Shown: piece by piece, positions 30,001 to 33,000 of the stretch | Layout of the letters: every line of letters starts with the position of its first letter | Position numbering within the stretch: the first letter of the stretch is position 1 | IMG/VR virus record: IMGVR_UViG_2721755646_000010 | Origin: a virus | Taxonomy: Duplodnaviria > Heunggongvirae > Uroviricota > Caudoviricetes | Direction: 5' to 3' (one strand) | DNA: 64,000 bases | Position numbers: made by a program

Positions 30001-33000
30001 TGCTAAAACAGCAGGATATGACAGAAACCGCCAGAGTGGTGTTTAATGAATTAAGCGTTACCGAACCGGCGACAGTCGGGGAGATTGCGCAGAATACTTA
30101 CCTTTCACGCGAACGCTGCCAGTTAATACTGACCCAGCTGGTTATGGCGGGTCTGGCAGACTATCAGTGCGGTTGTTACAGACGCATTCAGTCCTGAAGG
30201 CTTTTTATTTGTGGTAAATGGGCGGCTGGTGGGGGGGGCGGCACCTGTCAGTCCTTTGCTTATGTGTTGATGATAATTTACCTTTTGGGGCTATAATTGA
30301 GCTAACCAATTGCTAATGAAAGTAAAATTATAATGGCTGTTGTCTGTTCAGTTATCATGGTTTGCTCCCCAATTAATATTTTTCTTGAAAAGGATACGTT
30401 GTCACTTAAGCCAGGCTCAGTCGTTCTGGCCACCAAATGCATCAGGGAGCTTTTCCTTATGCATTATGGCAAAGTTAAAATTGTCGATATAAGCGAATCC
30501 GTCGTAAGTCAATATCTGGAAAGTCAGCATAAGCTGACGAGGACTCGTCTGACTGACATTCCGCTTTACCTGTTGCTGGAACCCAACAATCCTGCGTTGG
30601 CTGCGGCTTTAATTACCAGCCAGGGATTTTCCGGAGAGGTCACGGATATGTTTCTTATGATGGCCTGCCTGTCTCTGTTTGAAACAGATGAACGGATGTC
30701 ATTGTTTTTAAGTGGATGTTTATCCAGCATAAGTGCCAAAGTCAGGGCGATAATTCAGACAGATATATCAGCAAGCTGGACGCTTGGTGCGATTGCTCTA
30801 CAGTTGCATATGAGTGAGAGTTTGTTAAAGACAAAACTGAAAAATGAAGGGGGCATGTTCAGTCGCTTGTTGCTGGAAGAGCGGATGCGTGTTGCTGTAA
30901 ATATGTTATGTTCCCGGTATGGATATGGACAGGCTGTAGCAGAAAAATGTGGTTATTCAAGCCGGTCCTACTTTATTTCTGTATTTCACCGCTATTATGG
31001 CTTCCCGCCAGACAGATATGTATCCAGGCAAGGGCTTGATTATTGATTTTCATCTGATTATTATTTTTTGGCTCGGCCCTTTAGCTCAGTGGTGAGAGCG
31101 AGCGACTCATAATCGCCAGGTCGCTGGTTCAAATCCAGCAAGGGCCACCATCACAAACCGCCATTAGCTTATCAGGAAGAGCAGACGACACCATAACAGG
31201 GTTGTTGGTGCGGGGCCGGGTCCCCGATGGCGGTCCATTATCGGTATTCTGCGTTGTTAGCTCAGCCGGACAGAGCAATTGCCTTCTAAGCAATCGGTCA
31301 GTGGTTCGACTCCACTACAACGCGCCACACTTATTTTCCAGGCTCGCTTCGGCGGGCCTTTTTTGTATCTGCGCCACGCCCGGCGCATACCAACCACAGA
31401 GCCTTTCGGGGGTGAGCTTACGGAGTGGTCAGTGTGACTTTCTCTGTGGGCAGATCGCTCCCGGGCGTTGGCTCACCCACCCAAAGGAACGTCACGATGT
31501 TTGGAATCTTCAAAAAGAAAACCCGCAGAGCGGCAACGGAAATTAAAAAGTTTGAAAAACGCGATCTGGCACAGGTGGTGATTAACGCCGCATACCTGGT
31601 GGCCTGTGCAGATGGTGAATGTGAGGCATCCGAGAAAGCGAAGATCGAACAGGTACTGCGTAATCAGCCTGCGCTGTCCGCGTTTACGTCAGAAATTAAT
31701 GCGATTAGCGCAACCATTATCGGTCAGCTGGATACGAACTTTAAAACTGGTCGTCGTGCGGCGTTACGTGAGATTGAGGATGTGAAACACGATACGCGTG
31801 AAGCGGAAGATGTGCTGGATGTGGCGGTGGCCATTGCGGAGGCAGACGGCGAAATTGAGCCGGAAGAGCGCAAGGTGCTGGAAGAGATTGCCGGTGTTCT
31901 GGGTCTTCGTCTGGAGAATCACCTGTGACGGTAAAACTGCGCCTGGCTGTGGCTGCACTCCTGCTGTTTCTGGTGGTGATGGTGGATTTCACCAGCAGAA
32001 TCATGTCGGTGCTGGCGGATGGGGTGCTGGTCTGCGGCATTGTGGTATTGCTGTGGCCGGTGATAAAAAGAAACAGCCTGCATAATGCTTGATTTTTTTG
32101 TTTGCTGTTTATTAAAAACACTTCTGCATGGTGAATCCCCCTGTGCGGAGGGGCGATCAGCAACCAGGTATATGGGATAATCGCGGATTCAGGTGCTGAT
32201 ACTGAATTCACCGGGAGGCACCCGGCACCATGCTTTGCCACAAAAGTGTTGTTTCTGTTTTTCTCAAACTATCATCGTTATCCCTTTATTTCCGGCTGCG
32301 CATGGCGCGGCTTTTTTTTACGACCAGCCACTGGCAGATGGTCATCCTGTGATTTGATTCCGGTTCCGGCTTTTTAACTCTGTTCCTGTACACGGGAGAA
32401 ATTCGATGTCGATTAAACATTATGATGTTGTCAGGGCGGCGTCGCCGTCAGACCTTGCGGAAAAGCTGACACACAAACTGAAAGAGGGCTGGCAGCCGTT
32501 TGGTAGTCCGGTGGCCATAACCCCTTATACCCTGATGCAGGCGATTACAGCAGAAGGTGATGTGGTGGTCAGTGGTGCAACTGAGCCGGATTGGTACTAC
32601 GTCATCGTACTGGCCGGGCAGTCCAATGCCATGGCTTACGGTGAAGGGCTTCCGCTGCCGGATTCATACGATGCTCCGGATCCGCGCATTAAACAGCTGG
32701 CGCGCCGCAGTACAGTGACGCCGGGTGGGGCTGCCTGCAGATATAACGATATTATTCCGGCCGACCACTGCCTGCATGATGTGCAGGATATGAGTACGCT
32801 GAATCATCCGAAGGCAGACCTGAGCAAAGGGCAGTACGGCTGTGTCGGCCAGGGGTTACATATTGCCAAAAAACTGCTCCCGTATATCCCGAATAACGCG
32901 GGGATCCTGCTGGTACCATGCTGTCGTGGTGGTTCGGCATTTACCCAGGGCGCGGAGGGGATATTCAGCGAGTCCACGGGGGCCAGCCAGGATTCGGCGC

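Follow-up and report, generated by a model that had tools for sequence, protein, structure and literature searches.

What is the role of two overlapping genes, one for a TerB-like protein and the other for a tiny membrane peptide, carried among the late genes of a lambdoid prophage? The question arises from a 64,000-nucleotide (nt) stretch of viral DNA (IMG/VR record IMGVR_UViG_2721755646_000010; hereafter the window); all window genes described below are on the + strand unless otherwise stated. An initial annotation had singled out two open reading frames (ORFs) at 31497-32092 as a pair that it did not recognize as a described system. Both ORFs lie at these positions, and the GTG start of ORF2 overlaps the stop codon of ORF1 (as GTGA), but the pair is not new: it is a homologue of the tciA-tciB genes of phage P1, a gene identity that we regard as near-certain, and it is already catalogued in PHROGs (632 and 1470), Pfam (PF05099 and PF13064), and RefSeq, such that recognizing it is no discovery. 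We tentatively propose a function for the pair at the inner membrane of the infected cell, and we describe a leader RNA ahead of tciA that is the most interesting new item at the locus, being uncatalogued and common to other late-operon accessory genes.

RefSeq annotates both genes at identical coordinates in Escherichia coli O157:H7 strain TR01, to the chromosome of which positions 31400-32200 of the window are 100% identical, and in the Escherichia phage JLK-2012 record the pair is annotated as tciA/tciB (91% nucleotide identity by megablast). Window TciA (143 amino acids [aa]; 31497-31928, with an ATG start and a TGA stop) has 40.6% identity to P1 TciA (tblastn, E = 5e-22) and 50.7% identity to the allele in a variant P1 record, and TciB (55 aa; 31925-32092, with a GTG start and a TGA stop) has 50% identity to P1 TciB. 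The P1 genes were themselves named by homology only (NC_005856 annotation). Our literature search found no report of an experimental function for any tci gene, and no published test of one for tellurite resistance, phage inhibition, or colicin resistance. P1 tciA, tciB, and tciC are non-essential in a genome-wide CRISPR interference screen (PMC10695390), and the genome note for phage Pollock calls the role of its pair unknown (PMC4319500).

The TerB-like fold suggested for ORF1 is borne out by several comparisons. TciA matches Pfam TerB (PF05099) over residues 31-138 (E = 3.7e-14; 53.4 bits against a cut-off of 24.4) and PHROG 632 (E = 1e-68), and its profile matches the solved Klebsiella pneumoniae TerB structure 2jxu (E = 2.7e-16). 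An AlphaFold2 (AF2) model is all-helical (pLDDT 87, pTM 0.81), with the TerB-like structures 2h5n (probability 1.0, TM score 0.55-0.62) and 2ou3 as its best Foldseek matches. Two ADG...E motifs are present, in which D39, G40, and E46, and D117, G118, and E124 are invariant or nearly so among 30 homologues; we take this duplicated acidic motif of TerB to be a putative ligand or metal site. The N-terminus (MFGxFKKK) is also nearly invariant; it lies outside the Pfam match and is modeled with low confidence. Sub-threshold matches link TciA to DjlA (E = 4.2e-07) and to DUF533 (E = 1e-05), but judged by sequence it is a member of neither family, as it scores below the curated cut-offs. No terC, terD, terE, or terZ gene was found near tciA in the window or in related loci, where the neighbors are tRNAs and genes for DUF3927, STnc100, an SASA esterase, and a holin.

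TciB belongs to DUF3927 (PF13064; E = 4.3e-17, 62.3 bits against a cut-off of 25) and matches PHROG 1470 ('TciB-like') over its full length (E = 4e-30). A Shine-Dalgarno (SD) sequence, GGAG, lies at 31913-31916 within the last tciA codons, 8 nt before the GTG, and at most, but not all, homologous junctions GGA occupies this position within conserved CTG-GAx (Leu-Glu/Asp) codons. The GTG start is credible because homologues starting with ATG share the same N-terminus, including an invariant K4. In 24/24 pairwise comparisons with homologous loci tciB has lower pN (0.16-0.49) than pS (0.35-1.0), the nonsynonymous and synonymous differences, respectively; ORF2 is thus a real coding gene under purifying selection. 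The initial annotation saw two hydrophobic helices in the peptide, and here the evidence divides: hydropathy has two maxima, at about residues 12-15 and 38-39, split by a conserved polar DFTSR segment, whereas the AF2 monomer is a single continuous helix (pLDDT 90). A two-helix or hairpin topology is plausible. The conserved core reads LLLFLVVxxDFTS(R/K)xMSxLADGVLV...WPxxK, and on a helix D21, S24, R25, S28, and D32 all face the same side.

The TciB family is small, with ~150 clusters at 50% identity among 1.84 billion representatives. Nearly all of the 150 representative clusters are 45-65 aa long and always stand-alone, and where the organism is named it is a member of the Enterobacterales or one of their phages. 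The longer family members are frameshift or chimeric artefacts, and a search of the 150 clusters for natural TerB-DUF3927 fusions that might serve as Rosetta-stone evidence yielded none. Several public entries at the locus are annotation artefacts (P0126, P0125, P0134, P0001, P0042, P0359, and P0404), and include a TciA-TciB frameshift fusion named 'zinc-finger family protein' (P0126), over-extended TciA N-termini, and TciB read into the STnc100 region.

Whether the small ORF is conserved together with its TerB-like neighbor was the test on which the initial annotation staked its pairing, and the two do travel together. Taking one genome per species, we examined 21 loci with a complete TciA homologue, mostly from Enterobacterales plus two Pseudomonas species; a TciB hidden Markov model places the tciB start -7 to +9 nt from the tciA stop in 19 of these, and the offset falls in the same range in 28/28 pairs examined. 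The two exceptions have other genes at the junction: a divergent small hydrophobic peptide, apparently with two transmembrane segments and a TAATG overlap, in Rosenbergiella (L185), and an unrelated protein with one transmembrane segment and an ATGA overlap in Pseudomonas juntendi. The pair is found in P1, the P1 variant, JLK-2012, LMessi, and Klebsiella phage 1 LV-2017 (where tciB is unannotated), as well as in the virulent N4-like phages FSL SP-076 and Pollock and the Erwinia jumbo phage ChrisDB. The two commonest TciB clusters comprise >4500 and >3000 contig blocks, and in all of the places listed their neighbor is a TerB gene, with the Q/methylase region on one side and the holin on the other. 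The window's cassette allele is present in 798 of 5426 complete E. coli genomes (~15%); scans of IMG/VR yielded nothing beyond near-identical copies from E. coli prophages, leaving the sampled diversity unchanged.

How might such a pair act? By analogy with other TerB-like proteins, we suggest, at somewhat less than even confidence, that TciA and TciB together constitute a membrane-tethered TerB module split over two polypeptides, and that this module conditions the infected cell's inner membrane or protects it. TciB would insert in the inner membrane and there partner or anchor TciA, and the two would together be a split version of membrane-tethered TerB proteins such as DjlA, the TerB-related DUF533, and the TerB-TerC pair. 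We read TciB as the membrane partner of TciA because TerB has been scored as interacting with TerC, an integral membrane protein (PMC11003894), because DjlA has a TerB-like domain directly behind a transmembrane helix (bioRxiv 10.1101/2024.08.29.610257), and because of the sub-threshold matches of TciA to DjlA and DUF533; we infer that the cytoplasmic face of the inner membrane is a common site of action for TerB-like domains. Translational coupling would deliver TciA and TciB together, and the pairing of an anti-SD sequence with the SD in the leader would gate the synthesis of both. The module would act in the lytic phase, late in lambdoid phages, from the C1-repressed ban operon in P1, and probably early or middle in N4-like phages, and may guard the inner membrane against superinfecting phages, pore-forming colicins, or membrane-acting host defences, as a version of the Ter 'phage inhibition / colicin resistance' phenotypes that benefits the phage. 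It would be dispensable for plaque formation.

The close spacing of the two genes, the correlation between TciA and TciB distances across loci (below), and the contexts in which the pair occurs are consistent with this proposal. In every context that we read, gene order and annotation place it within a lytic-cycle unit: the lambdoid late operon, P1, where tciAB lies between Pban/Oban and ban, and the N4-like phages, where it lies among dUTPase and ATPase genes. The window cassette is flanked by terminators. The tciABC locus ranks among the eight hypervariable regions of P1-like phage-plasmids and has frequently been lost from them (PMC9603915), as expected of a conflict or accessory locus. Stand-alone TerB proteins have also been described in Erwinia jumbo phages, for which Iyer et al. 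proposed a part in competition with superinfecting phages (PMC7824862).

TciA has the domain and fold of the TerB of terZABCDEF, which is reported to partner an integral membrane protein, TerC; however, the membrane gene beside tciA codes for a 55-aa peptide unrelated to TerC, and the tci genes are phage-borne, including in virulent phages. DjlA has an inner-membrane helix next to its TerB-like domain, the arrangement that we propose in trans for TciAB, but in DjlA the anchor is fused in one polypeptide, together with a J domain, whereas the TciAB anchor would be a separate peptide. T4 Imm, HK97 gp15, and P22 SieA are small inner-membrane superinfection-exclusion proteins, dispensable in the laboratory, that act against competing phages. 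The likeness of TciAB to these is a functional analogy only; we detected no sequence relationship, and they act alone, without a TerB partner.

Several observations weigh against the split-module proposal. Contact between TciA and TciB is predicted by analogy, and natural fusions are lacking; AF2 gives TciB no hairpin; the Ter phenotypes belong to the whole terZABCDEF cluster and not to TerB alone; and gene order and annotation are the source of the presumed expression timing. Each gene also exists without the other, and the partnership is therefore not obligatory. Solitary TciB is found in phage 434, behind a gene for a 247-aa membrane protein, and in database cluster P0270 (128 members), and the match in phage 2B8 covers only tciB; solitary TciA is found in Pseudomonas phage PMBT3 and Vibrio phage K481, where it is followed by a terminator-like hairpin. 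(We set aside 'TfpB', the name that Pfam gives this 247-aa protein, because the literature matches concern type IV pili.)

The sequence comparisons further show that alleles of tciA and tciB have been shuffled by recombination with breakpoints inside tciB, which speaks against tight co-evolution. TciA falls into three allele classes at >=60% identity, plus Pollock, whereas most TciB proteins form one class spanning TciA classes I and II; the TciA and TciB distance matrices are only moderately correlated (Mantel r 0.39, reached by 7/5000 permutations). Between the window and JLK-2012, TciA is 97% shared and TciB only 70%, and between P1 and the P1 variant TciA differs throughout, TciB differs in residues 1-16 and shares its last 38, and TciC differs at a single residue. 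(Breakpoints were compared between window 31925-32092 and L001 4526-4690, L002 2967-3125, L004 2926-3090, and L006 1935-2099, and we observed that the C-terminal half of window TciB resembles phage 434 TciB.) With partners shuffled in this way, they are therefore interchangeable to a degree, and any contact between predicted partners must use conserved features, namely MFGxFKKK of TciA and the DFTS...ADG...WP core of TciB.

This shuffling, together with the existence of each gene singly and the moderate distance correlation, is what would be seen if the two genes merely traveled together, TciB being a stand-alone peptide (for example, for superinfection exclusion or as a modulator of a host transporter) and TciA an independent cytoplasmic ligand-binder, with their adjacency reflecting co-regulation only. 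We consider this unlikely, as the stop/start overlap is near-universal across very different types of Enterobacterales phages and would be hard to keep without functional linkage or a need for stoichiometry. A more intimate relationship is envisaged if TciB is a depolarizing membrane toxin and TciA an antitoxin or sensor that releases it upon infection by a competing phage, as in toxin-antitoxin or abortive-infection systems. The gene layout, in which translation of a small hydrophobic peptide is coupled to that of a soluble protein encoded upstream, would suit such a system, the polar stripe on one TciB face (D21 to D32, above) fits an oligomeric pore, and TerB domains occur in Ter systems that have been linked to phage inhibition (PMC7371120). 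We nonetheless judge it quite unlikely, above all because TciB is stably carried without TciA (as in phage 434 and the 128-member cluster) and because strictly virulent N4-like and jumbo phages carry the pair, which together are the strongest evidence against it. TciA is also found without TciB, the pair is part of operons of the lytic cycle, not of units expressed in the lysogen, and PADLOC-DB holds no significant match (the best for TciA is PDC-S48, with E = 0.005 over 35 residues; TciB has none). Of the initial annotation's comparison with abortive-infection or membrane-stress modules, the former half is thus weakly supported, and the latter is plausible.

Does the pair instead serve the lysogen? 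The TerB homology is real, RefSeq and PHROGs use the name 'tellurite resistance', and ter clusters raise survival of tellurite and oxidative stress (PMC11003894), such that tciAB could be a cut-down ter operon conferring resistance to tellurite, oxidative stress, metals, or colicins by lysogenic conversion. The other ter genes named above are missing from its surroundings, however, and in the PMBT3 genome paper the authors doubted that terB on its own would give tellurite resistance (PMC8421299). Expression in a lysogen is doubtful because terminators lie upstream, the operon is Q-dependent, and the 130 nt upstream of tciA contain no consensus-like sigma-70 site, which also led us to reject the leader region as a sigma-70 promoter; with virulent phages carrying the pair too, we hold such a role to be very unlikely. 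A part in lysis timing, with an antiholin-like or holin-modulating peptide and its regulator, is suggested by the position of the pair just upstream of the holin-endolysin cassette in lambdoid prophages and by the size and two hydrophobic segments of TciB, which resemble those of class II holins. It is nevertheless highly improbable: neither the P1 ban operon, nor the N4-like nucleotide-metabolism genes, nor the ChrisDB tRNA cluster places the pair beside an annotated lysis gene, TciB matches no Pfam holin family at E up to 0.1, and knock-down in P1 gives no plaque defect (PMC10695390).

The split-module proposal places the control of both proteins in the ~130 nt upstream of tciA. This segment (31366-31496), recognized by aligning upstream regions, is ~85% identical between loci in which TciA is only ~40% identical, whatever lies further upstream. 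The predicted structure begins with a hairpin, P0 (31370-31387), followed by the 5' strand of a helix, S1, in which CCACAGAG (31394-31401) pairs with CUCUGUGG (31442-31449) around a small hairpin, P3 (31427-31439). A longer-range helix, stem B, has two parts: an anti-SD part in which CCUUU (31402-31406) pairs with the tciA SD sequence AAAGG (31483-31487), and a second part in which GGGUGAGCU (31410-31418) pairs with GGCUCACCC (31470-31478). S1 and stem B cross, and are thus either a pseudoknot or mutually exclusive conformers. With tciB coupled to tciA, the leader would therefore control both proteins.

Searches with nhmmer and a covariance model (cmsearch) identified 23 true copies of the leader among 44 sources. 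Covariation was assessed in a MAFFT alignment of 15 copies, a small sample with many close relatives, in which the leader helices pair in 91.7% of cells, compared to 37-53% for slid partners, and the anti-SD/SD helix pairs in 100%. Eleven pairs are changed on both sides, compared to 2-5 in controls, and 0/500 shuffles reach this. S1 was also evaluated alone in the covariance-model alignment, which was not fitted to it; 86.5% of cells pair, compared to 38-62%, and four pairs have, in total, eight cells changed on both sides. The compensation is evident by eye, with S1 formed by CCACAGAG/CUCUGUGG, CCGUAGAG/CUCUACGG, CCGCAGA/UCUGCGG, and CACAGAA/UUCUGUG in different copies, and by CCAAAGA/UCUUUGG, CGAGAG/CUCUCG, CUCAGAA/UUCUGAG, and GAAAGU/ACUUUC in further ones. 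Folding of the copy upstream of ant gives an unconstrained minimum free energy (MFE) of -39.6 kcal/mol with stem B, and the S1-constrained fold, at -37.6 kcal/mol, is nearly isoenergetic; for the tciA copy the values are -53.3 (stem B) and -41.1 kcal/mol (S1). We regard the predicted structure, including sequestration of the SD, as well supported but not proven, because the sample is small and many of the copies are closely related.

SD-sequestering leaders are familiar as RNA thermometers, and in phage lambda the N leader is opened by RNase III. The tciA leader resembles these in having a long-range helix in which an anti-SD sequence pairs with the SD of the downstream gene, but differs in the additional covarying S1 that crosses the SD helix and in its reuse before unrelated genes. 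An ant-type variant is present in 308 phage records, mostly upstream of ant and including Shigella phage POCJ13 and many Shiga toxin (Stx) phages. Other phages have the leader in front of different genes: tciA (Erwinia jumbo phage ChrisDB), a KilA-N gene (Salmonella phage ST104), a Rha-like gene (HK639), and an HNH endonuclease gene (ECP1); in a Pseudescherichia prophage it precedes a 259-aa ORF. The window has a second, diverged copy, with P0, S1, and the anti-SD/SD stem, at 35979-36117 (nhmmer E = 1.2e-9; cmsearch 89.9 bits); the gene after it is an Ant-like ORF (36115-36684) situated between the endolysin and Rz/Rz1 genes. Related copies were located in L205 (897-1036), L206 (902-1044), L207 (901-1036), L208 (897-1030), and L180 (5478-5596). 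With the covariance model, no copy was detected ahead of tciA in P1, the N4-like phages, or about a dozen of the genome loci.

Rfam holds no above-chance match overlapping the leader, even at E up to 10 with a 191-nt query, and none to the second copy at the same threshold; the only matches near the leader with E <1 are in the terminator region (31330-31370), plus one on the opposite strand (15.6 bits). We also considered the small RNAs PasA and PasC. In E2348/69, PasA lies across the esterase gene from the STnc100-like PasD2, and pasA and pasC typically adjoin the holin/lysozyme operon; hence they are not the tciA leader.

Two side observations concern the ends of the leader. At 31481-31504, the unconstrained MFE fold pairs CCAAA, which overlaps the SD, with UUUGG in tciA codons 2-3 (Phe-Gly), enclosing the start codon in a small hairpin; RNA structure may therefore also constrain the MFG at the N-terminus of TciA, which is nearly invariant. 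At the other end, the first 47 nt (31366-31412) are 100% identical in 'PPompW' prophages (LC567818 to LC567841, H149-H159), where the match is annotated within or beside an IS110-family ISEc20 element; this suggests that insertion is targeted specifically to the leader or to its P0/S1 region.

The cassette belongs to a lambdoid prophage of E. coli O157:H7, in its Q-dependent late operon. Pfam scans and ORF calls identified a DUF1133/Q-like antiterminator gene (29209-29775) followed by a small ORF, and an AraC-family regulator gene (30333-31046) lies in the late-operon cargo region between the antiterminator gene and two tRNA genes, tRNA(CAT) (31075-31150) and tRNA-Arg(UCU) (31251-31327). ARAGORN calls the first of these Met(CAT), and RefSeq calls the identical TR01 gene tRNA-Ile. 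Just after tRNA-Arg, an intrinsic-terminator-like hairpin, GGCTCGCTTCGGCGGGCC plus a T-run (31341-31367), marks the 5' boundary of the cassette, and is kept ahead of the leader whether the upstream gene is a tRNA, Q, or a helix-turn-helix gene. Directly 3' of tciB is an STnc100 small RNA gene (32097-32269; Rfam RF02076, 104.7 bits against a gathering score of 47), and a second terminator-like hairpin and T-run (32294-32322) ends the cassette just before a DUF1737-SASA esterase gene (32406-34256). Class II holin (34705-34911) and endolysin (35311-35844) genes follow. The cassette is thus a self-contained unit of terminator, predicted SD-sequestering leader, tciA, tciB, STnc100, and terminator, and it sits where the initial annotation had placed it, in a late cargo slot between the Q-like gene and the esterase and holin genes. 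Stx phage 75/02 has stx1AB at the same position, between Q and STnc100-like sequence plus the esterase, and the tciAB cassette occupies the slot held by stx in Stx phages.

The P1 locus has the same core order, a TerB-domain protein gene followed by a DUF3927 peptide gene starting at the tciA stop; tRNA genes adjoin both cassettes, and both are accessory and non-essential. They differ in that the window lacks TciC, that its copy is in a Q-dependent late operon and P1's in the C1-repressed ban operon, and that the structured leader is absent from P1. A tblastn search with P1 TciC matched only P1-type loci (L004, L006, and L187) and nothing in the window, where STnc100 is at that position; a 31-aa ORF there (32085-32180) was rejected as a gene or TciC homologue, as it lies within STnc100 and its apparent conservation belongs to the RNA. 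Klebsiella phage 1 LV-2017 likewise has STnc100-like sequence after tciB, Stx phage 75/02 has it after stx1B, and the STnc100 part of the query is matched in 2697 of 5426 complete E. coli genomes (about half). tRNA genes adjoin tciAB in lambdoid phages (the window and JLK-2012), P1, the Erwinia jumbo phage ChrisDB, and a few genomes, the loci besides the window being L001, L004, L005, L171, L184, and L187; three unrelated phage types are thus represented. Most loci have no flanking tRNAs, and we discarded a functional link in favor of a shared cargo region.

Elsewhere in the window, sok antitoxin RNA (26607-26781, + strand), DicF RNA (19346-19397, - strand), and sar RNA (5971-6037, - strand) score above their Rfam gathering scores, and TR01 has an annotated Hok/Gef gene at the counterpart of the sok position. 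After the holin gene, TR01 is annotated with truncated ydfR and capsid genes and a frameshifted portal gene, and window 34900-36700, unlike TR01, has an intact endolysin gene, the Ant-like gene, and Rz/Rz1; the window therefore derives from another copy or strain of the prophage family.

A broader picture would have TciA and TciB as a two-component membrane system used by unrelated enterobacterial phages (lambdoid, P1, N4-like, and jumbo) for inter-phage competition or counter-defence in lytic growth, with TciB as the membrane effector or assembly, the variable, allele-swapped TciA as a ligand-sensing regulator, and, in lambdoid and Erwinia jumbo phages, a pseudoknotted or bistable leader gating synthesis as a portable translational switch common to late-operon accessory genes (tciA, ant, kilA-N, rha-like, and HNH). 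Taken as a whole, this picture is doubtful. What stands is a conserved two-gene module, of predicted function only, in ~15% of complete E. coli genomes, and its carriage as lytic-cycle cargo that virulent phages also keep shifts the question from host tellurite resistance to phage-phage and phage-defence conflict at the inner membrane. Because the leader, which is absent from Rfam, is reused before antirepressor, KilA-N, Rha-like, and HNH genes, and hundreds of phage genomes (those of Stx phages among them) contain it, it may be a general translational control element of late-operon accessory genes.

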